Below are positions 16,644 through 39,394 of a DNA stretch of 39,394 nt, piece by piece. The stretch lies in contig JAYUUN010000062.1 of NCBI GenBank assembly GCA_043754535.1, positions 1 to 39,394 on the forward strand, read 5' to 3'. The notes beneath the pieces are model-generated. The model was not told where the DNA came from, did not search any database, and saw only the letters and a list, made by a program, of their open reading frames with translations. The position numbers and the translations under genes are program-made. The DNA comes from Chloroflexota bacterium (GTDB lineage: Bacteria; Chloroflexota; Chloroflexia; QHBQ01). Position 1 is the stretch's first letter, and every line of letters starts with the position of its first letter.

Positions 16644-17843
16644 CTAGCCCACGTAATAGACGAGGCCGGTGGCCGCATCCACGCGGATATTTATCTTGGT
16701 AAGGGCAACACGAGCTGGGCGGAGGGTGGCTGAGCCGTCGGCTGCGCTGAACAACGCGCCATGGCAGGGGCAGCGGAAGTTCGCCGCCGTGGGCTGATAG
16801 TTGACTTCGCAGCCCTCATGGGTGCAAAGCCCATTGTAGGCGAGGAAACTGCCGTCGGTTAGACGCACCAGCTTGCCGGGGATATTGCTGCCAGGGATGA
16901 TAAAGTCCAGTCCACCACCTGGGGCAATGTTGGCTACTTTGGCTATCACTTTGCCCACTATGGTGGCTGGTACTGCGGTCGCTGCTGGCGGGGCGGTGGT
17001 GTCAGTTGCTAGGGGTAGCGGCGTGTCAGTCGCTGCTGCCGGAGCAGTGGTGTCGGTTGCTAGGGGTAGTGGCGTGTCAGTCGCTACTAGCGGAGCTGTG
17101 GTGTCGGTTGCTAGGGGTAGCGGCGTGTCAGTCGCTGCTGGCGGAGCTGTGGTGTCGGTTGCTAGTGGTAGCGGCGTATTGGTTGGCACTGCGGGGGGCA
17201 GCATGGCACTGGGTTGGCTGCCTGCGCTGGCACTGCTCTTGCCGCGCTCGATGAAGCTGCCAGCCACGATGCCACCGCCAACCAGCAGGGCGATGCCTGC
17301 CGCTACCCCACCACCGACGCGGGCCAATGTCGTCCGACGGCCCAGGTCGGGCGCGTCAGCCAGCGGCCTGCGACTAGCTAGCAAGCCGTCTAGCGAGAAG
17401 ACTCCCGCGCCAGTCAAGATCAACGTCAGCCAACCGATCATATATGGCACGTCTGGGCCGGTATAGAAGGGGTAGGCGTTCCAACTAGCGGTTAGCCAGA
17501 AGCTAGTACTGAGTAGTAGGCCGAAGAAGGCCGCTGCCCGCGTCAGCAGACCAGCCATTACGCCGAGGCCAATGGCTACTTCGCCAAGAGCGACCACGAG
17601 GCCGAACAACTGGGCGTTGGGAATAACTAGCCCTGATAGCAAGCCACTGATCGGCGCATCCGCACTGACGTAGCCTGCCAGTTGCTTGCCTATATAGGTC
17701 GCGCCTTCTGGGTTGAGGAAGCCTGGGTCGGTCAGCTTCTCGATGCCTGCCGCCAGGAAGATCATTCCCAAAAAGAGGCGAAGCGGTAGTACCGCCCAGT
17801 TGGAGATCGCGGTGTGTGAATTGTCAACGGTGTTTTGCTTCAT
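16644..17843 (-). CDS. DoxX/DoxD-family membrane domain fused to a C-terminal Rieske [2Fe-2S] domain
   Basis: LRLFLGMIFLAAGIEKL, GEVAIGLG...GLLTR and GAGVFSLD (DoxX); CTHEGC and CPCHGALF (Rieske). Start at ATG 17843 after GGGAG. Confidence 0.88.
   Translation of the reverse strand: MKQNTVDNSHTAISNWAVLPLRLFLGMIFLAAGIEKLTDPGFLNPEGATYIGKQLAGYVSADAPISGLLSGLVIPNAQLFGLVVALGEVAIGLGVMAGLLTRAAAFFGLLLSTSFWLTASWNAYPFYTGPDVPYMIGWLTLILTGAGVFSLDGLLASRRPLADAPDLGRRTTLARVGGGVAAGIALLVGGGIVAGSFIERGKSSASAGSQPSAMLPPAVPTNTPLPLATDTTAPPAATDTPLPLATDTTAPLVATDTPLPLATDTTAPAAATDTPLPLATDTTAPPAATAVPATIVGKVIAKVANIAPGGGLDFIIPGSNIPGKLVRLTDGSFLAYNGLCTHEGCEVNYQPTAANFRCPCHGALFSAADGSATLRPARVALTKINIRVDAATGLVYYVG
16978..17183 (-). 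repeat. About four 51-bp coding tandem repeats (TDTPLPLATDTTAPPAA)
   Basis: Repeated GGTGTC(A/G)GTTGCTAG(G/T)GGTAG units on the plus strand. Confidence 0.85.
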
Positions 17844-17907
17844 TGCTGCTCCCTTACGTAGAATGGTTGTTCGTCCGCCAATGGACTGCTGGCCGTTACG
17901 TAGGTTC

Positions 17908-17961
17908 AGTATAGGGGGACAACATGAAAGCGAAATGAACAAAACATTAAGCTACCATTAA
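17908..17961 (-). promoter_or_regulatory. Four 11-bp-phased TT(A/C)AT boxes upstream of a TATACT -10 (OmpR/PhoB-type site)
   Basis: Plus-strand AT(G/T)AA at 17924, 17935, 17946 and 17957; -10 at 17908-17913. Confidence 0.55.
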
Positions 17962-19494: not shown

Positions 19495-20301
19495 GTGAAT
19501 AATCGCTATTCCCATCTCAGTCGTCTTCTCGTCTCCATCGTCGCCATTGCCATTGTCGCTATCATCGGCAGTGGATCAGCTTTCGCTGGGCCGCCGCTCA
19601 CCACCACCCAGGTGTTCAGCACGCTCAACATCCCAGCGGGTAGTAGCTACCGGGTGTTCGTCGCCTGCCCACAGGGTAGCGTCGTTAGTGGGGGTGGCTG
19701 GAACAGCAGCAGCCCCACCGTTGATATTATGCTCAGCGAGTATAGCAGCAGCAACCTGTGGCTGATAATCGGCCACAATACTGATGCTGTCGCCCACAGC
19801 CTGACCGCCTACGCTATTTGTCTGAGCGGTATCCCCAGCCTGAACAACCAGAGTGCCGCCAAACAGGTTGTCGCCGCCAACAACGCTGGGACATCCACCA
19901 GCACCTGCAGCAGTGGTACCCTAACCGGCCCTGGCTTCGCTAAGTCTGTTGACGGCCTGTTCATCAACGCTACCGTGCCAAACGCTAACATCAACCAGGT
20001 AGTCGCGACCAACAACAGCCCGGCTCCGGCCTTTGCAACCTCGTTCAGCAACTGCGTCGGTTCACCAAACATCCTGCTCAACACGATTGTCGCAGCCAGC
20101 AACAGCGTTGGGGCAAATAGCGTGGCTAATGCAACGGCGGCCTGCCCGACCAACTATGTGGTCACTGGTGGTGGCTTCCGCGTTGAGCCTGGTATGTACA
20201 TCCTCAGCAGCTCAAAGATGGGCAACGGCTGGGACATTCGGGTGCTGAACAGTGGTGCCACCAACCCTGTCACCAGCTACGCAGTATGTCTACGCACGTA
20301 G
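19495..20301 (+). CDS. Secreted protein with three Cys-bracketed beta-rich repeats
   Basis: AGGAG RBS plus GTG 19495, signal peptide ending AFA, and repeats CPQGSVVSGGGW..AYAIC, CSSGTLTGPGF..SFSNC and CPTNYVVTGGGF..SYAVC. Confidence 0.8.
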   Translation: MNNRYSHLSRLLVSIVAIAIVAIIGSGSAFAGPPLTTTQVFSTLNIPAGSSYRVFVACPQGSVVSGGGWNSSSPTVDIMLSEYSSSNLWLIIGHNTDAVAHSLTAYAICLSGIPSLNNQSAAKQVVAANNAGTSTSTCSSGTLTGPGFAKSVDGLFINATVPNANINQVVATNNSPAPAFATSFSNCVGSPNILLNTIVAASNSVGANSVANATAACPTNYVVTGGGFRVEPGMYILSSSKMGNGWDIRVLNSGATNPVTSYAVCLRT

Positions 20302-20327
20302 TAGCCCACTGCGCCTGCCAGCAGCCT

Positions 20328-20360
20328 AAAGGGGTGGTGCCGACAGTGGCACCACCCCTT
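20328..20360. terminator. Bidirectional terminator hairpin
   Basis: AAGGGGTGGTGCC-gacagt-GGCACCACCCCTT between convergent genes. Confidence 0.75.
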
Positions 20361-20375
20361 CCTGTTTCGATCCCC

Positions 20376-20861
20376 TCAGATGCCGGGTGGTTGCAAGTCG
20401 GCTAGCAACTTTGCCAACCGCTCCATCTTCTGGTCGCCGTCCGCTTGCATCTCGCTCACCAACATAGCGTCACGATCCTCAATGCTCTGGAAGACGGAGG
20501 TGCTGGTTACTTTGGTGCCAGTCTCGTGATGCTCAAAGGTGACCGTCTCTAGTGAGACGTGGCCTGGCTGACCTTCCCATTCGTAGGTGTAGATGGTTTG
20601 TAGCGGCACTACAATGCTGTGATAGACCCCGTGGAAGGCCCATTCGTTGCCCTGCGTGTCATGTAGGAGGTATTGCCAGTTGCCGCCCGACCACGGCTCC
20701 ATCTTAGCGACGGTTAGGCTGAGGCTGGGCGGCCCCCACCACTGGGCGATGGTTTGGGGGTCGGTCATTAGCTTGAAGACGAGTTCACGGGGCGCGTTGA
20801 AAGTGTGGGTGATGACCATTGAGTGTTGCTGGGCGGCGGCGACCAGGCTGAGCTTTGCCAT
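20376..20861 (-). CDS. SRPBCC/AHSA1 (START-like) domain protein
   Basis: HTFNAPRELVFKLMTDP..QWWGP and FHGVY..YTYEWEG motifs. True start is ATG 20861 after AGGAG, not the ORF-track start at 21188. Confidence 0.9.
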   Translation of the reverse strand: MAKLSLVAAAQQHSMVITHTFNAPRELVFKLMTDPQTIAQWWGPPSLSLTVAKMEPWSGGNWQYLLHDTQGNEWAFHGVYHSIVVPLQTIYTYEWEGQPGHVSLETVTFEHHETGTKVTSTSVFQSIEDRDAMLVSEMQADGDQKMERLAKLLADLQPPGI

Positions 20862-20919
20862 CTTGTTGCTCCTTTGCTCAAGCAAGGTGCTGCGCCCTTC
20901 AGTGGGCGGGCGGTGGCTT

Positions 20920-21031
20920 GCGGCTAGCCCCTCAAATGCGGGGTGGTGGTTGCAATGAGACGGGCAATAGCCTCGGTGACCACTACGGCTTACGGTTTCG
21001 ATCCTCTCAAATGCGGAGTGGTGGTTGCAAT
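20920..21031 (-). CRISPR. Mini CRISPR array: two divergent 37-nt repeats and one 38-nt spacer
   Basis: Repeat 1 (21031-20995) ATTGCAACCACCACTCCGCATTTGAGAGGATCGAAAC; spacer (20994-20957) CGTAAGCCGTAGTGGTCACCGAGGCTATTGCCCGTCTC; 3'-degenerate repeat 2 (20956-20920) ATTGCAACCACCACCCCGCATTTGAGGGGCTAGCCGC. Confidence 0.85.
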
Positions 21032-21195
21032 GCCTACTAGGTGGGTTTAGGCACGATTTGCGAGAGGCAACCACAACAGGCTTATTATAGCACACTTTTC
21101 GCCGTTGTGAATACCTGGTGCTGACCAATTTGGGCCTATTTGTCGCCGCGAGAGGCGCAGCTGTAGCCCGCCACGCCGCCGCTCGCACAAACCAG
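21032..21195 (-). promoter_or_regulatory. Leader and promoter of the mini-array
   Basis: TTCACA-16 nt-(TGc)TATAAT at 21111-21084, and GCGAGCGG/CCTCTCGC/CCTCTCGC motifs homologous to the main leader. Confidence 0.8.
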
Positions 21196-21206
21196 CGGTC
21201 TTGCCA

Positions 21207-22028
21207 TTACGCCCCCCTCTCTGGCAGCAGCCGCGCCTGACCCATGCCCATCGTCGTCTTGTAGCCTACCCCGCTGTAGCGAGCAAACTCAGCCAGCATC
21301 GCCAACCGCTCCGCGCACTCCCCTTCCCCGCGCACCTGGTAGGTACAGCGTCCGCTAAAGCCCTTCTGCGAGTACTTGGGGAAGTGCAGGGTGGTAGTCC
21401 GCAGTTCATAATCGGCAAGCACTACCTGGCTCTCGGCAAACTCGCCGATCACCTGCTTGTCCAGGTGTAGGGCCGCAGGAGCAAAAATGTTCCACGACCT
21501 TGCCAGGCTCTCGAACACCCACTTGGGGTCAGGGAGCAGGTGGAACAGCTTGTCGCCCCGATTGAAGGCGGTAGGGGAGGAGAACTCCAGGGTAAGGTAG
21601 CGGCTGGCGGGGGTGGCGGCCAGCGTCTGCCAGTCGGCATAACCAGCCCAGCCGCTTGGCTCAGGCGTAGCGAGGGTACGTAGCAAGGTGAAGTGGTCGT
21701 TGTCGAGGCGCACGCTGAGTTTGCCACGCAAGAACTGCTGGCTGAGGCAGGCCCAGATGCGTCCGCCATCCAGCAGGGTAAAGCGTAGGCGGCAAGTCTC
21801 GCCAGCTGGGATCACAATCTGCTCACCGCGTAGTCTACCACCAGTCAATGGAGAGACGGTGAAGGGGCGGGCTGCCTGCCCCTCATGCAGTGTGGCAGAG
21901 AGGTCAGGGTCAACCTGCTGCACAAGGGCAAGCAGGAGAGCGTGCGCCTGGTGGCCCATCGTGCGGGGCAGGGTGGCAGGAGCGGTGGGGGCGAGTTCGA
22001 GAACGATAGAGTGGAGCAGGTTGGTCAC
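21207..22028 (-). CDS. cas6: CRISPR-associated endoribonuclease Cas6
   Basis: RPFTVSPL, LEFSSPTAF and the C-terminal G-rich loop YSGVGYKTTMGMG. Confidence 0.95.
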   Translation of the reverse strand: MTNLLHSIVLELAPTAPATLPRTMGHQAHALLLALVQQVDPDLSATLHEGQAARPFTVSPLTGGRLRGEQIVIPAGETCRLRFTLLDGGRIWACLSQQFLRGKLSVRLDNDHFTLLRTLATPEPSGWAGYADWQTLAATPASRYLTLEFSSPTAFNRGDKLFHLLPDPKWVFESLARSWNIFAPAALHLDKQVIGEFAESQVVLADYELRTTTLHFPKYSQKGFSGRCTYQVRGEGECAERLAMLAEFARYSGVGYKTTMGMGQARLLPERGA

Positions 22029-22726
22029 TGGCCTACCTCCGCACCGAAGTAGCTCATCTCGGCAGGCAGGTAAAGGGCATTCTTGTCGTCCTTGCCGCTA
22101 GCCCCAACGTTGTAGCAAGGTTGTTCGGTGGCAGCATTGATCAGCAAACTGACTGGCGGCATATGCACAATGTCATAGGCCAGCAAGTGGGCTGGTTGGT
22201 AGTCGAGTGGGTTGAGCGGAGCAGCTAGAACGACTGACTCACGCGGCTTCTGTGCTGCATATTCACCCTCGCGCAAGACGCGCAACTCCGCCTTACTCAT
22301 CCACTTGCCGAGGCGCAACCAGCGGGGCAGCTTCAGGGCGGCGTTGCTCAGAATGTAGAACTCGAAGCGCGACCCGACCGCCAACTCCTTAGCCCGACCA
22401 TACACAACCGCATTGCGCGTTCCACGCTCAGTCAGGCTGTAGTAAGCCGGGTCGCCCAGCTTGAAGGTGTTAAAGACGAAGCTATACTCAAGCGGGCGGG
22501 CGGGCGTGACGTAGATGCCGCCTTGAGCCAGCCCGCTCAAGTCCTCCCTATAGGTCGGCACCTGGCTAGCGTTGAAGTAGTGAGGGGCAAGGCCCAGCGT
22601 CAGGCCGAGCGCATAGCTAAGGCCGTAGTTGTGCAGGTAACGCTCAGTCTCATACAGCCTGCCCATCTCACGGCTGGCGTAGAAAAGGTTGTCGTGCAAG
22701 GTTAGCTGACAGGTAGCTATGTACAT
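22025..22726 (-). CDS. cas5: Type I-D Cas5 (Csc1)
   Basis: LHDNLFYASRE, LHNYGLSYALG, IYVTPA and LPRWLRLGKWMSKA motifs. Confidence 0.93.
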   Translation of the reverse strand: MYIATCQLTLHDNLFYASREMGRLYETERYLHNYGLSYALGLTLGLAPHYFNASQVPTYREDLSGLAQGGIYVTPARPLEYSFVFNTFKLGDPAYYSLTERGTRNAVVYGRAKELAVGSRFEFYILSNAALKLPRWLRLGKWMSKAELRVLREGEYAAQKPRESVVLAAPLNPLDYQPAHLLAYDIVHMPPVSLLINAATEQPCYNVGASGKDDKNALYLPAEMSYFGAEVGQ

Positions 22727-32758: not shown

Positions 32759-33666
32759 GTTGCAGCAACGGTAATCGCGACTGAGCGATTGAAACGTTGA
32801 AGGGCGCGGGTATGGTGGAGCAACTAGCCGAGTTGCAGCAACGGTAATCGCGACTGAGCGATTGAAACTGTACGATCCAGGATGTAGCGCACGCGGCTAA
32901 TATCGTTGCAGCAACGGTAATCGCGACTGAGCGATTGAAACAAGTTATCATTGAGCATCTGATCTAGCGCGCCTGGGAGGTTGCAGCAACGGTAATCGCG
33001 ACTGAGCGATTGAAACTTGCCTGAGGTTAGCGTAGGCGGTCATACGCGGGCGGGTTGCAGCAACGGTAATCGCGACTGAGCGATTGAAACGGATGCTTCC
33101 TCCCTGCTCATCCCATCGGCAGGGGCGTTGCAGCAACGGTAATCGCGACTGAGCGATTGAAACAGGTCGTTTACAAGCTGGCCCATGAGCCGTTCGATAG
33201 TTGCAGCAACGGTAATCGCGACTGAGCGATTGAAACGGCTTCTAGTTTGGGGTTCGAGGTGTGCAGCTAGAGTTGCAGCAACGGTAATCGCGACTGAGCG
33301 ATTGAAACTACGCGGATCAGGGGCGTGACTTTGTCCGCCCGGGTTGCAGCAACGGTAATCGCGACTGAGCGATTGAAACAGCAGTTCGCAGGCATCTTTA
33401 GCCTCCACATCGCGTTGCAGCAACGGTAATCGCGACTGAGCGATTGAAACAATTGCAGCTGCCAGTGCAGCAGCCACTAGGTGGGTTGCAGCAACGGTAA
33501 TCGCGACTGAGCGATTGAAACGTGCCAGCTACCCGCTTGTAGCCCGCCCCTTCCAACGGTTGCAGCAACGGTAATCGCGACTGAGCGATTGAAACGCCGC
33601 TTCGGGGGCTGAGGCGGCAACCCAACCGCGTTGCAGCAACGGTAATCGCGACTGGCTGCCAGCCGC
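32759..33666 (+). CRISPR. Type I-D CRISPR array, 13 repeats (last degenerate) and 12 spacers of 34-38 nt
   Basis: Repeat GTTGCAGCAACGGTAATCGCGACTGAGCGATTGAAAC at 32759, 32832, 32905, 32980, 33054, 33127, 33200, 33272, 33343, 33414, 33485 and 33559; only the first 25 nt are conserved at 33630. AATCGC/GCGATT stem and ATTGAAAC 3' end. Confidence 0.99.
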
Positions 33667-33814: not shown

Positions 33815-33875
33815 CCTGGGTGCTGCATGATAAGTGGGATCAGACCAGGCAAGGTTAGCGAGGAGGCAAACAGAG

Positions 33876-36470
33876 ATGGGTGACCTCAAAACCTTCCGTG
33901 AGCGAGTACAAAGTCTTTACCACAGCGTCCGTCCTTTTGCTCATGACCGTCGCCCCACCGTAGATGATCTGGCTCACGCCATCGGCCTCAGCCGTGCTGA
34001 ACTAAGTAGGCGGCTGAACGGTAGCGGTAAGCTGCCGCTAACTTGTGCTAATGCTCAAGCAATCCTGCGTACCCTCGCAAAGTGGGGTGCGCTACAAACG
34101 CAAGCTCAAGCAGTTGACCTCCTGGTTTTGCTCGGCTGTGCGCCCTTTGCGCCTCAAGAGTGGCAGTCCCCACCACTCGACCAGCTTGCCCGCAGCAGCC
34201 CGGCAAGTCAGGCAAGGTTTGAGCAGGGTGGCAACAATCTACCGCTCCAAACAACCAGCTTCGTTGGCCGCGATGAGGAGCTTGCCACACTTGCCGAATT
34301 GTTGGCAAGCACCCCGCTTTTGAGCATCGTCGGTGCCGGGGGCATGGGCAAGACCAGACTGGCGATTGAACTGGCGGTCAAACTGCTGCCTGCTCACCCT
34401 GATGGCTGTTGGCTGGTCAGTCTTGCGCCGCTAACCGAAGGCTATCGAGTGGCAAGTGCGGTTGCGAATGTACTGGGCCTGCGCGAGGAGGCGGGGCAAC
34501 CAACCAGTGCTGCCCTGGTTGATTACCTGCGCTCCCGCAAGCTGCTGTTGGTGCTGGACAACTGCGAACACCTGCTGGCCGCCTGCGCCGATTTGGTCAA
34601 GCTGCTGCTGGCCGCCTGCTCCCACCTCCGCATTTTGATCACCAGCCGCGAACCGCTCGGCATCACAGACGAAACCGAGTGGCGGCTATCTCCGCTGCTA
34701 CTGCCTGGCGCAAGGCAACTCAGCCCGGTGCAGGCGCAGGATTATGCAGCGGTTGCCCTATTCGTCAACCGGGTACAAGCTGCCCTGCCCCGTTTCAGAC
34801 TGGACGAGCGTAACACGCCCAGCGTGGTACAGCTATGCCAGCAGCTTGAGGGCATCCCCCTGTCTCTTGAACTGACCGCCCCCCTAGTCAAGGTTCTCAG
34901 CCCCGCCCAACTAACCAATCGTCTTGATGGTCGCCTGCGGCTGCTGCGCAGCAGCGATCCGACCACGCCCAGCCGCCAACACACCGTCCGTGCCTCAATG
35001 GAGTGGAGTTATGACCTGCTGGATGAGGCGGAGCGCACCCTCTTGCGTCGCCTGGCGGTCTTTGCTGGCGGCTGGAGCCTGGAAGCTGCGGAAGTAATCT
35101 GCTCTGCTGCGCCGTCCACCAGCCAGCAGCCACAACCTGTAAGCGACGATCTACAAGCAATGGACGTGCTGAGGGGTCACATTCAACTGGTGAACAAGTC
35201 GTTGGTGCAGGCGGGCGAGCAGGCTGGCGTAGTCCGCTACACCATGCTGGAGGTGGTGCGGCAATTTGCTACCGACCTGCTGGCGAAAAGTGGCGAGGAG
35301 GTGTCACTGCGCCAGCGGCACGCCCACCTGTACCTGGCCCTGGCCGAACAAGCAGAGCCGGAATTGCGTACTGGGGAGCAGGCATTGTGGCTGGCCCGGT
35401 TGGATGCGGAACACAACAACTTGACCGCCGCACTGGGCTGGTTGCTGCAACACGAGCCGGAGGCGGCCCTGCGCCTGGCCGGTACGCAGTGGTTGTTCTG
35501 GTTGATGCGTAGCTACATCAGCGAAGGGCACCGTTGGTTGGTGGCGGCACTGGCTCAAAGTGAAGCCGCCAGTCTGGCTACGCGGGCCAAAGTCACTCAT
35601 GGTATGGCGGTGATGACCTATGAACAGGGCGACACCACCCTGGCGCGTACTCTGCTCGAAACAAACCTGGCCGTGAGCCAGCAGTTGAAGGACGACAGTG
35701 GGGTTGCGGCAACCCTGTTCAACCTGGGAATAATTATCTTTGAGCAAGGGGATTACCAGACTGCCGGGGTACATTTTGAACAAGCCCTCAGCATCAGGCA
35801 GCGGTTGGACGATAGATGGGGCATAGCCGCTTGTCTTAGCCGACTAAGTGCGGTGTTCTATGCTCAGGGTGATCAGGTGGCAGCGAGTGCATACCTTGAG
35901 CGGGGCATGGTCATTGTCCGTGAACTGGGTGAGCAGTCGCTACTGGCTGAATTGCTGATGTTCAAGGGAGAGCGGGCGCGGCACAAGGGCGACTACTCGA
36001 CGGCGGAGGCCGCGCTGCGAGAATGTCTGACCATCAGCCAGACCCTGGGCAACAAGGTGTGGACAGCAGCCGCCCTCGTTACGCTGGGCCGGGTTGCCAG
36101 GGACAGGGGAGACTACCCCGCCGCCCACGACCTGTTCAGCCAGTCTATTCGTACCAAGCAGGCGGCGGAAGAGACGCTGTGGGTGGCACCCCACCTGGAG
36201 GCTTTCGCCTCGCTCGCTGCCGCCCAGAACCAGGCTCAAGCGGCTGTACAGTTGTTGGCTGCCGCCACCGCTTTGCGCCAGGCGGTAGGCAGTACAATGA
36301 AGCCCTTCGAGCGTGAGCAGTACGAACGCACCACAACAGCGGCACGAGCGCAACTCAGCGAGGCGGAGTTCGAGATCGCCTGGGCCGTAGGCAGTAGGAT
36401 GAGTGCAGACCAGGCCATTACTTACGCCCTCAACTTGCGTGTTCCCAGCGACACGATAGTGTCACCTTGA
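33876..36470 (+). CDS. XRE-like HTH + STAND (NB-ARC-like, COG3903) ATPase + TPR regulator
   Basis: N-terminal DDLAHAIGLSRAELSRRLNG, TSFVGR, Walker A GAGGMGKT, LLVLDNCEH, LEGIPL, WSYDLL and C-terminal TPRs. AGGAGG RBS before ATG 33876. Confidence 0.9.
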   Translation: MGDLKTFRERVQSLYHSVRPFAHDRRPTVDDLAHAIGLSRAELSRRLNGSGKLPLTCANAQAILRTLAKWGALQTQAQAVDLLVLLGCAPFAPQEWQSPPLDQLARSSPASQARFEQGGNNLPLQTTSFVGRDEELATLAELLASTPLLSIVGAGGMGKTRLAIELAVKLLPAHPDGCWLVSLAPLTEGYRVASAVANVLGLREEAGQPTSAALVDYLRSRKLLLVLDNCEHLLAACADLVKLLLAACSHLRILITSREPLGITDETEWRLSPLLLPGARQLSPVQAQDYAAVALFVNRVQAALPRFRLDERNTPSVVQLCQQLEGIPLSLELTAPLVKVLSPAQLTNRLDGRLRLLRSSDPTTPSRQHTVRASMEWSYDLLDEAERTLLRRLAVFAGGWSLEAAEVICSAAPSTSQQPQPVSDDLQAMDVLRGHIQLVNKSLVQAGEQAGVVRYTMLEVVRQFATDLLAKSGEEVSLRQRHAHLYLALAEQAEPELRTGEQALWLARLDAEHNNLTAALGWLLQHEPEAALRLAGTQWLFWLMRSYISEGHRWLVAALAQSEAASLATRAKVTHGMAVMTYEQGDTTLARTLLETNLAVSQQLKDDSGVAATLFNLGIIIFEQGDYQTAGVHFEQALSIRQRLDDRWGIAACLSRLSAVFYAQGDQVAASAYLERGMVIVRELGEQSLLAELLMFKGERARHKGDYSTAEAALRECLTISQTLGNKVWTAAALVTLGRVARDRGDYPAAHDLFSQSIRTKQAAEETLWVAPHLEAFASLAAAQNQAQAAVQLLAAATALRQAVGSTMKPFEREQYERTTTAARAQLSEAEFEIAWAVGSRMSADQAITYALNLRVPSDTIVSP

Positions 36471-37385: not shown

Positions 37386-37667
37386 GCAAAGACCGGCGTG
37401 CCAGCGGATGCTGGTGCGCCTGTTTGCGGAACAGCACTGTGTTGTACTACAAGCAGCGGTGGCAGGCAGCCGATGACGCGGCTGCCAACTGCGAGTCTGT
37501 TGCCGCGCAGTTGAAGGGAATCTGGCGTGGAGGTACTACTATTGGTAGAGCTACGCCAGCAGGGGCGGCTGCTGAACCTTGCCCCCACGGCTTATGCGGG
37601 CCATTAGATTAACCCCTGGCCCGCCCCTCTTGCTACGGTGCTGTTTAGATCAGGAAAGGATACTACG

Positions 37668-39394
37668 ATACAGACGAACAAGCGAACGCGGCTTTGGTCG
37701 CAAGTTGGGTTGGCGATCATGCTGCTCACCAGCCTGCTGGGGGCGACCCTCAGCAGCAGCAACCTATCGGTCATGGCCCAGGCAGATCGGCAAGCGAACA
37801 AGCTAGTGGCAGCCAGGTCCAGCAATCACCCCGCCGTTTACCAGCCCGTCGCTCCCGCCCTCTGCGGCCCGCTCGGCTTCAGCAACACCAGCTATCAGGT
37901 AGGTAACTACCCTCACGACGTCGTGGTCGGCGAGTTCAACAACGATGCTCCCCTCGACCTGGTGACTCTGAACGCTGGCACCAGCGGCAGTGTATCGGTC
38001 CTACGCGGGGTTGGCAACGGCACATTCCTGAACTCAGTGTCCTACACTGCCGGTAGCTACCCCCAGTCGTTGGCCGTTGGTGACTTCGATGGCGACCGCT
38101 ACGACGACTTGATGATCGCCAATGCCGTTGTGAATCAGGTGTCAGAGTTGCAGAACCTGGGGGATGGCACTTTCGCGGCCCCCTATGGCTACAATGTGGG
38201 CAATAGCCCCGCTGGGGTGGCAACTGGCGACTTCAACGGTGATGTTTACCTCGATGTGGTGAGTGCGAACTATAACTCAAACAACCTGTCAGTGTTAATC
38301 AACAGTGACATGGGTTTCTCGGCGGCGGTCAACTACAACACGGGTGTGCAACCAGCAGCAGTCACGGTTGGCGACTTCAACCACGACGGCAAAGCCGACC
38401 TCGCCGCCGTGAACACTGGCTCGAACAATGTATCGGTGCTGCTCGGTAATGGCAACGGCACCTTCCAGAACCCGGTCAACTTCGGCGCAGGCACTTACCC
38501 TCGCTCCCTGGTGGTTGGTGACTTCAACCATGATGGCAACCGCGACCTTGCTGCCGCCAACCAATCCTCAAACAACGTGTCGGTGCTGCTTGGTAATGGC
38601 GATGGCCTCTTTCAGGCAGCGGTCAATTTTGGGGTGGGCACCTATCCCAACCAGGTGGCGGTTGGCGACCTCAACAGCGACGGCAATCTTGACCTGGTGA
38701 CGGCGAACGAAGACTCGCACAACCTGTCGGTGCTGCGCGGCAACGGTGACGGTACTTTCCAGCCCGCACTCAACTTCAGCGGCGATAACCCTGTTTCGGT
38801 CGCGGTTGGCGACTTTAATGGCGACGGCAAGCTAGACCTTGCCAGCACTAACTATAACTCGCATAGCGTGTCGGTGCTGCTGAACACCTGCGTGTCAGTA
38901 CCTAACACGCCCACGCCACCTGTGACCAACACGCCGACCCGCACCCGCACGCCAACCAACGCGCCTGCATCCCCGACCAACACTGCCGCACCCAGCCAGA
39001 CCCCTGGCGGTGCGACCGCCACCCCCAACTGCACGACCTCATTCACCGACGTTGGTACGAGCAACATCTTCTATGCCGACATCCTGTTCCTCGCCTGCCG
39101 GGGCGTGATCAGCGGCTTCCCCAATGGCGACGGTACGTTCCGGTTTGAGCCGAACAGCAACACGACACGGGGGCAGTTCGCCAAGATCGCCACGCTCGGC
39201 TTCGCCCTACCTGCGTTTACCCCAGCCACGCCCACCTTCAGCGATGTGCCATCAAACAACGTCTTCTACCAGTTCGTGGAAGCAGCCGCCCACGCGGGCG
39301 CAATCACCGGCTTCAGCGACAGCACCTTCCGCCCCAACCAGAACGTGACGCGGGCGCAGGTGGCGATTATTACCCTGCGGGCTAGAGGCTATAC
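37668..39394 (+). CDS. Secreted FG-GAP/VCBS seven-bladed beta-propeller protein with Pro/Thr linker and SLH domains (3' end outside window; missing from the ORF track)
   Basis: Open frame with seven GDFNxDGxxDL-type repeats, a Pro/Thr linker, and CTTSFTDV..FYADILFLACRG SLH repeats. The apparent start is ATA 37668, with in-frame alternatives TTG 37710 and ATG 37719. Confidence 0.9.
   Translation, partial: MQTNKRTRLWSQVGLAIMLLTSLLGATLSSSNLSVMAQADRQANKLVAARSSNHPAVYQPVAPALCGPLGFSNTSYQVGNYPHDVVVGEFNNDAPLDLVTLNAGTSGSVSVLRGVGNGTFLNSVSYTAGSYPQSLAVGDFDGDRYDDLMIANAVVNQVSELQNLGDGTFAAPYGYNVGNSPAGVATGDFNGDVYLDVVSANYNSNNLSVLINSDMGFSAAVNYNTGVQPAAVTVGDFNHDGKADLAAVNTGSNNVSVLLGNGNGTFQNPVNFGAGTYPRSLVVGDFNHDGNRDLAAANQSSNNVSVLLGNGDGLFQAAVNFGVGTYPNQVAVGDLNSDGNLDLVTANEDSHNLSVLRGNGDGTFQPALNFSGDNPVSVAVGDFNGDGKLDLASTNYNSHSVSVLLNTCVSVPNTPTPPVTNTPTRTRTPTNAPASPTNTAAPSQTPGGATATPNCTTSFTDVGTSNIFYADILFLACRGVISGFPNGDGTFRFEPNSNTTRGQFAKIATLGFALPAFTPATPTFSDVPSNNVFYQFVEAAAHAGAITGFSDSTFRPNQNVTRAQVAIITLRARGY

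Follow-up and report, generated by a model that had tools for sequence, protein, structure and literature searches.

Does a single spacer flanked by two divergent repeats, lodged behind cas6 in a type I-D CRISPR-Cas locus, encode a regulatory guide RNA, or is it a product of ordinary CRISPR anatomy? The question arises from a 39,394-nt stretch of Chloroflexota DNA (hereafter, the window), corresponding to contig C62 of a 3.87-Mb assembly that is distributed over 132 contigs and 88.9% complete. A first-pass annotation made from the letters of the window had proposed either a CreR/CreA-like guide of the I-D system or a frozen ancestral or second-family array. Elements of the former kind have been described for type I systems, I-D included. 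In the I-D loci described by Shmakov et al. (2023, PMC10120712), crlRNA mini-arrays lie between cas3 and cas10d and have a predicted target in the cas10d promoter, and Liu et al. (2023, bioRxiv 10.1101/2023.03.10.532045) define elements of the CreR type through partial complementarity with cas promoters. Here we analyze the unit in the context of the whole assembly, of related genomes and of strains sampled in other studies.

Anatomy of the mini-array and its leader

The assignment of the locus to type I-D is borne out by a full set of I-D genes together with Cas4-Cas1-Cas2. Genes for a WYL regulator, Cas3 helicase, Cas10d/Csc3, Csc2, Csc1 and Cas6 occupy the minus strand, with cas3 and cas10d overlapping, and those for Cas4, Cas1 and Cas2 occupy the plus strand, followed by a 13-repeat array. 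These products were recognized by I-D profiles (TIGR03174, 1.2e-88; PF18320, 2.9e-106; TIGR03159, 1.7e-48) and, for Cas3, Cas6, Cas4, Cas1 and Cas2, by Pfam. Directly after this main array (33834-36470, plus) the window encodes an 878-aa STAND NTPase with TPR repeats, a possible defence-island neighbour. Other repetitive sequences in the window include five tandem 51-nt units (16927-17232) inside an ORF on the minus strand (16644..17942), six ~147-nt repeats (38069-38880) in the ORF at 37638..39392, which we take to be FG-GAP-like by their GDFNGDG motif, and related repeated coding segments at the two window ends (1-560 and 38927-39338), ~38.8 kb apart.

The repeat-spacer-repeat unit reported on the minus strand after cas6 was confirmed at 21031..20920, and every checkable particular of its description proved correct (Table 1). 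Its leader-proximal repeat (R1) reproduces the reported ungapped identity of 16/37 to the repeat of the I-D main array (family 1), and the stems of the two repeats are unrelated, as claimed, with CCCC/GGGG in the family of R1 (family 2) and AATCGC/GCGATT in family 1. The 37-nt repeats and 38-nt spacer yield a period of 75 nt; the periods of other arrays span 71-79 nt. R1 and the terminal repeat (R2) agree at 30/37 positions, with mismatches concentrated in the last 8 nt of R2 and a single mismatch over the first 26 nt (whole-genome BLAST, E 5e-6). R2 breaks off after GAGGGG into its degenerate end, and a similar break-off, into ..GCCAGCCGC, characterizes the terminal repeats of the array on contig C112 and of the I-D main array. 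Homology among the trailers is convincing only in part: a short motif, ..AGCCGC, is the sole sequence common to the trailers of the mini-array, the C112 array and the main array, and the C112 array and the tail of the array on contig C27 have a trailer and terminator in common. Rfam models at gathering thresholds detected nothing at the mini-array and only a tRNA in the whole window.

Table 1. Positions of the mini-array, its flanking features and the I-D main array in the window.
Feature	Position	Strand	Description
GC-rich hairpin	20328..20358	minus	11-bp stem, 6-nt loop, then TTT; read from sequence
R3, solitary family-2 repeat	20397..20364	minus	3-nt deletion; 30/34 to consensus; genome-wide E 2e-4
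SRPBCC/AHSA1-family gene	20376..20861	minus	161 aa, intact; PF08327, E 1.9e-20; downstream of array, same orientation
Trailer/junction	20879..20919	minus	41 nt; between R2 and start of homology to the ArsR-AHSA1 operon of relatives
R2, terminal repeat	20956..20920	minus	ATTGCAACCACCACCCCGCATTTGAGGGGCTAGCCGC; first 29 nt equal the family-2 consensus, last 8 nt degenerate (CTAGCCGC)
Single spacer	20994..20957	minus	38 nt; read from sequence
R1, leader-proximal family-2 repeat	21031..20995	minus	ATTGCAACCACCACTCCGCATTTGAGAGGATCGAAAC, 37 nt
Mini-array leader	21032..21200	minus	Promoter and two GCCTCTCGC motifs; ~150 nt homologous to other array leaders
cas6 of the I-D operon	21207..22028	minus	PF10040, PF19308, TIGR01877; directly upstream of leader
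I-D main array	32759..33666	plus	13 family-1 repeats, last degenerate

Relative to the consensus kept in R2, R1 has undergone C>T and G>A changes in the stem and a T>C change in the 8-nt handle, which reads ATCGAAAC in R1 and ATTGAAAC in the family. The predicted hairpin is correspondingly weaker (-2.8 kcal/mol for R1 versus -7.8 kcal/mol for the family-2 consensus). In CRISPR arrays the repeat next to the leader serves as the template for each new one; the changes in R1 are therefore younger than the single spacer, and no spacer has been added since.

The leader (170 nt) begins directly after the stop codon of cas6, at 21207. A promoter scan recovered the extended -10 promoter previously attributed to the unit, TATAAT with an upstream TG, as a predicted promoter of the form TTCACA-16-TGnTATAAT on the minus strand (21111..21084) with 11/12 matches; this is the only promoter-like site in 20200-21300, for which shuffled sequences gave a mean of 0.3. 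We aligned the 200 nt located 5′ of the first repeat in the mini-array, in the arrays on contigs C50, C27, C94 and C43, and in the I-D main array. About 150 nt of the mini-array leader are homologous to the four other family-2 leaders (77-80% BLAST identity over about 230-270 nt; 78-80% for those of C50 and C27) and also to the I-D main leader, in which a 23-nt insert is the main difference. The six leaders have in common a -35 box, an extended -10 box, a GCGCCTCTCGC motif (in the form GAGCCTCTCGC in the I-D main leader) and a second motif, GCCTCTCGCAA; in the five family-2 leaders the first of these motifs is followed by CAAATAGGCCCAAATTGGTC. The sequence of the extended -10 box is GTGTGCTATAAT in four family-2 leaders, that of the mini-array among them, and one or two substitutions set the C43 and main leaders apart. 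The leader closest to that of the mini-array is the one on C50, down to the junction of leader and repeat (..TAGTAGGC joined to ATTGCAAC). One leader type is thus common to all of these arrays, the I-D main array included. Since it has the leader of its family and a degenerate terminal repeat like those of the family, the mini-array is a complete minimal array, made up of leader, one full repeat, one spacer, degenerate terminal repeat and short trailer, and not a fragment of repeat-like sequence.

The repeat family across the genome

Family 2, with consensus GTTGCAACCACCACCCCGCATTTGAGGGGATTGAAAC, is the most numerous repeat family of the genome, and its abundance lies outside the window, from which alone the repeat had looked merely divergent. 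BLAST and profile searches located over 60 copies, in arrays spread across five further contig groups, bearing out the suggestion of a second-family array. With R1 as BLAST query, array copies number 26 on C27 and 25 on C50 continuing into C119, and the smaller arrays on C94, C43 and C112 contribute 3, 3 and 5, respectively. R1 is identical to the C27 repeat at 33/36 positions, and a family-2 profile run over the 3.87-Mb genome recovers R1 (E 3e-10), R2 (E 1.5e-7) and a third copy in the window, R3 (E 2e-4), described below. Exact-pattern counts gave 25 instances of GTTGCAACCACCACCCCGCATTTGAGGGGATTGAAAC, 23 of ATTGCAACAACCACCCCGCCTTTGAGGGGATTGAAAC, 12 of the I-D repeat and 9 of a third family. 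A TTGCA start and the ATTGAAAC handle are common to all repeat families in the genome, and the latter ends every full-length repeat in the pattern count with the exception of R1. The third family, GTTGCACCTGCCCTTCGGGGTGGGTGGGGATTGAAAC, is found on contig C31 (minus) in nine copies that likewise start with TTGCA and end with ATTGAAAC.

The family-2 array of C27 is located at one contig end and adjoins a type III-B operon, Cmr1-Cmr6; the genome also encodes type III-A genes, Csm1-Csm5, on C46 and C75. Given the fragmentation of the assembly, linkage between array and cas operon is known only for C27 and C62. Only one Cas1, that of the I-D locus, was recovered from this 88.9%-complete genome; the type III operons lack a cas1 of their own, and the I-D proteins have no paralogues in the genome. 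Type III systems are known to borrow the adaptation machinery and the crRNAs of type I systems.

Profile matches to Cas6 occur in three places: the I-D cas6, a stand-alone 358-aa gene on C90, and a 64-residue remnant on C112, corresponding to the C-terminal part of the protein, that adjoins the family-2 array of that contig. The C90 Cas6 is 61% identical to this remnant, whereas a BLASTP comparison with the I-D Cas6 gave nothing significant (E 0.12). By neighbourhood, family 2 appears to go with the C90 type of Cas6.

The mini-array shares several traits with the secondary or orphan arrays of genomes in which type I and type III systems make use of one adaptation module, namely related leaders, a common ATTGAAAC handle, a lone cas1 that is absent from the type III operons, and a terminal repeat that is degenerate. 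It departs from them in holding one spacer, in its mutated R1 handle and weakened R1 stem, and in lying inside the I-D locus even though its repeat family is found beside the Cmr operon. These observations call for caution in the reading of isolated loci: the window alone makes a one-spacer unit with odd repeats beside cas6 resemble a CreR/CreA regulator, and the whole genome reveals a stray copy of its dominant, type III-linked array family. They further show one leader type serving at least two unrelated repeat families in a genome in which a single cas1 was found.

Targets, relatives and strain variation

The 38-nt spacer occurs once in the genome. Its best ungapped match as a self-target is 25/38, and the maxima for 30 shuffled spacers range from 24 to 28, so that the host genome offers no target, whether partial or with seed and PAM, beyond chance. 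Within the window, three sites other than the spacer itself agree with it at 10 or more of its first 12 positions, compared with a mean of 3.8 in 200 shuffles; none of the three is preceded by a GTN PAM, and none is located at the promoter of a cas gene. The first-pass annotation, which had seen no convincing PAM-flanked target in the window, was right on this point. Phage and plasmid collections returned short spacer matches only, at E values of at least 0.5, and no protospacer. A pattern allowing codon wobble had 0 matches among viral contigs, and a metagenome scan with N at the three polymorphic sites of the spacer retrieved two contigs, both of them the same locus and neither a protospacer. 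The annotation had named long arrays of this repeat with a cognate cas operon, together with a perfect viral protospacer match, as grounds for rejecting a regulatory role. The former are present, one of them beside the Cmr operon, and no viral protospacer was found.

The reverse complement of the spacer can be read as coding sequence (ETGNSLGDHYGL), which had been thought to favour a captured protospacer. Three paralogous secreted proteins with QMGNIGQHYYDWR are found among the 25/38 and 24/38 matches; the similarity falls within the range of the shuffles, and this candidate was dropped.

The distribution of the unit was analyzed using positions 20250-21300 as query against 40 relatives. The leader and array part matches only the own genome and arrays of G001, a member of the same genus. 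Behind cas6 the mini-array is absent from all three of the closest relatives that have this cas6 (G001, and G002 and G003 from the same family), which does not support its description as an ancestral array. G001 is close to the window in cas6 (90%), Csc1 (95%) and Cas1 (96% amino-acid identity), and in this relative the ORF after cas6, which overlaps the cas6 stop, encodes 585 aa with NERD and helicase domains. The peptide MA(R/K)MYP(Q/E) opens a long post-cas6 ORF in all three relatives (the Pfam scan covered the G001 copy). In G003 the start of this similar ORF overlaps the cas6 stop, and in G002 the ORF opens ~110 nt past the end of the cas6 match and is preceded by a second, short, stop-interrupted copy. 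The NERD-helicase ORF of G001 was not found in the genome under study. The array located 3′ of cas2 on the I-D contig of G001 consists of the family-1 repeat with 1 nt different, and a flank of the ancestral junction is located on another G001 contig. Since the I-D locus of G001 has family 1 and the relatives lack the mini-array, family 1 appears to travel with I-D, and the family-2 unit would be a later arrival in the lineage of the species.

Ten DNA runs contain most of the stretch, six of them from studies other than its probable source. Variation within the species was assessed on four of those from other studies and on two metagenome contigs. Single contigs from two runs span 20200-21400 with 3 and 4 differences, a contig from a third run bridges the whole mini-array, and those from the fourth are interrupted within it; over 19757-22032 the two metagenome contigs show 99.3-99.4% identity to the window. 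All five bridging contigs (three from runs, two from metagenomes) present the same one-spacer layout at >99% identity, with no sign of spacer turnover, and in this sense the array is frozen, as had been proposed. Eight sites vary in 1201 nt, and three of them fall in the 38-nt spacer (binomial P 0.0016), at positions 8, 13 and 22, the first of which belongs to the seed. The remaining variable sites are located in the leader (2) and in the downstream AHSA1 ORF (3), with none in R1 or R2. Given the excess of variable sites in the spacer and the fact that all three in the AHSA1 ORF are synonymous, the spacer evolves as unconstrained sequence and the neighbouring gene is under purifying selection. 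Such drift is expected of an idle spacer and not of a guide whose seed pairs with a fixed promoter. The invariance of R1 and R2 against this variation means that the repeats could still be under selection.

In the I-D operon, the two metagenome contigs are unrelated to the window upstream of the cas6 start (22032), where the window has csc1, and Csc2 is 65% identical between this genome and G001, compared with 87-96% for the other I-D proteins compared. On this evidence the operon has the look of a mosaic whose breakpoint falls between csc1 and cas6.

The adjoining gene and the competing readings

Downstream of the mini-array, an intact gene of the SRPBCC/AHSA1 family is preceded by a ribosome-binding site and has no promoter-like site of its own in the scan of 20200-21300. 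Orthologues at 70-76% nucleotide identity occur in 11 relatives, and in ten of these (nine of ten without the unpublished G034) the AHSA1 gene comes after one for an ArsR-type HTH protein, with an overlap of a few bases; the ArsR-type assignment comes from Pfam for three of the ten relatives. Homology to this operon starts at position 20878, only 17 nt ahead of the ATG, and the place of the ArsR-type regulator is taken by the array. At the other end of the gene lies R3, which had escaped the first-pass annotation and is located 560 nt further downstream of the mini-array. R3 reads CTTGCAACCAC(-3 nt)CCGGCATCTGAGGGGATCGAAAC, matches the consensus at 31/34 positions in other strains, where 20379 reads A, and is predicted to fold into a weaker stem. 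It supplies the last five codons and the stop of the AHSA1 gene. The C-terminus is ..LLADLQPPGI*, compared with ..LLAKLQ* or ..AKMHAGS* in orthologues, and homology to these stops where R3 begins. At the junction stands TTGCA, a sequence that starts the repeat and at the same time represents the Leu-Gln codons at the end of the G004 orthologue. R3 ends in GATCGAAAC like R1, and this otherwise unique ATCGAAAC ending, confined to R1 and R3, suggests that both come from one former array. The hairpin that follows R3 has only three T and fails a strict terminator scan; it is probably the terminator of the array-AHSA1 unit.

Related fusions occur elsewhere in the genome. On C27 (5319-5430, plus), a second one-spacer unit, comprising repeat, 40-nt spacer, degenerate terminal repeat and terminator but no leader, is fused to the end of a truncated Cmr2/Cas10 ORF, opposite the intact Cmr1-6 operon. 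On C71 (10251-10274, minus), a 19/20 match to the family-2 core (CCCTGCCTTTGAGGGGATTG; genome-wide E 0.01) lies inside a 20-residue C-terminal extension of a glyoxalase/VOC-family gene. We read R3 and the C27 and C71 fusions as recombination scars, which hint at repeated recombination between gene ends and the tails of arrays in this lineage. On this view, whole leader-array units or tails alone have entered several places: behind cas6, into cmr2 and onto the ends of small enzyme genes. As a single repeat without a partner, R3 is reminiscent of the phage SRUs/Racrs described in PMC10651486; unlike these elements, as there described, it is chromosomal, fused to the 3′ end of a host gene and located beside an array of the same family, and nothing about it points to a mobile element or an anti-CRISPR role.

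Taken together, the evidence favours the view, to which we assign a probability of about 80%, that the mini-array is an ordinary array, frozen with its one spacer, from the type III-linked repeat family of this genome. A leader-array unit may have landed behind cas6 by recombination or duplication in the lineage of the species, displacing the sequence that follows cas6 in relatives together with the ArsR partner of AHSA1, and may have kept its single spacer since arrival. The leader promoter would transcribe R1, spacer and R2, and Cas6 would cut R1 8 nt before the spacer, giving an RNA that begins with AUCGAAAC followed by the spacer. The C90 enzyme is a more likely cutter than the I-D Cas6, because a remnant of its kind lies beside a family-2 array. 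A type III complex could then load the RNA composed of handle and spacer and trim its 3′ end, in which case the degenerate R2 need not matter. The weakened R1 stem, altered handle and drifting spacer leave the odds between a working crRNA and a silent relic about even, and either outcome would be ordinary CRISPR anatomy and not a regulatory guide. Three observations count against the ordinary-array reading: R1 and R2 are invariant among strains in which the spacer varies, the array lies exactly at the cas6 end, which is a known position of CreA-type elements in I-B systems, and a plain array does not explain R3 or the gene between R2 and R3.

A CreR/CreA-like crlRNA would lead the I-D Cascade, by partial pairing, to a cas, toxin or defence promoter and repress it. 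Like the crlRNA, CreR and CreA elements described in PMC10120712 and 10.1101/2023.03.10.532045, the unit has two repeats and one spacer, its own predicted promoter and a place beside cas6 in a type I locus; its repeats differ from the main repeat of that locus and are invariant among strains. In those accounts, however, the repeats are degenerate copies of the locus's own, whereas here they are ordinary representatives of a family that counts over 60 copies, in long arrays under the same leader. The I-D mini-arrays there described sit between cas3 and cas10d, genes that overlap here. Of four defining traits, the unit shows location beside a cas operon and lacks the other three, namely a degenerate copy of the locus's own repeat, a partial target and conservation: self-matches and seed sites remain at shuffle level, the loci of the three relatives compared have no counterpart and the spacer varies at seed position 8. 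No toxin candidate was recognized, in contrast to the elements as described, and the gene next to the unit is a common SRPBCC gene whose orthologues form part of an ArsR operon. We consider a regulatory guide highly improbable. A second array of the I-D system itself, in which the I-D Cas6 would cut both families and the I-D Cascade would use the crRNA for DNA interference, fits the adjacency to I-D cas6, the start and handle common to all repeat families, and the shared leader type and single Cas1. It is decidedly unlikely in view of the unrelated stems, the linkage of family-2 arrays to a different type of Cas6, an R1 handle unlike that of every other full-length repeat, and the I-D contig of G001, which carries only a family-1 array and no mini-array behind cas6. 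The remaining alternative concerns the gene bracketed by repeats, the only part of the unit that we deem worth a further look. Here the leader promoter would drive AHSA1, and R1/R2 and R3 would allow Cas6 to trim both ends of the mRNA, tying the expression of the gene or the stability of its mRNA to CRISPR activity. Such a reading accommodates the substitution of the array for the ArsR-type gene that precedes AHSA1 in 10/11 relatives, the onset of homology 17 nt before the ATG, the sole promoter-like site in the region, an intact gene with synonymous polymorphisms only, the last codons and stop provided by R3 with the hairpin next to them, and a layout fixed in strains sampled elsewhere. Read-through from cas6 or a weak unrecognized promoter would nonetheless be equally sufficient; cleavage is doubtful at R2, which has no 3′ handle, and at R3, with its 3-nt deletion and weaker stem; and the arrangement may be a by-product of recombination, given the similar array tail on the truncated cmr2 of C27, where a function is implausible. 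We therefore hold this exaptation to be unlikely, and assign the same outside chance to the capture of a host gene in a CRISPR transcription unit, with an mRNA made from the leader promoter, bracketed by Cas6 sites and with R3 fused at the TTGCA microhomology. If true, it would constitute a natural cellular mRNA under a CRISPR leader and Cas6 sites, coupling the expression of a cellular gene or the ends of its mRNA to CRISPR RNA processing.

Judged by position, a unit on contig C51 (10040-10153, minus) is more promising as a hidden regulatory mini-array than the post-cas6 one. This strongly degenerate two-repeat unit (weak profile E-values of 0.34 and 3.9) has a 39-nt spacer and an upstream TTGACG..TGTTAGAAT promoter, and lies just before the gene for a 742-aa double ABC ATPase (Pfam ABC_tran) that we take to be UvrA-like.
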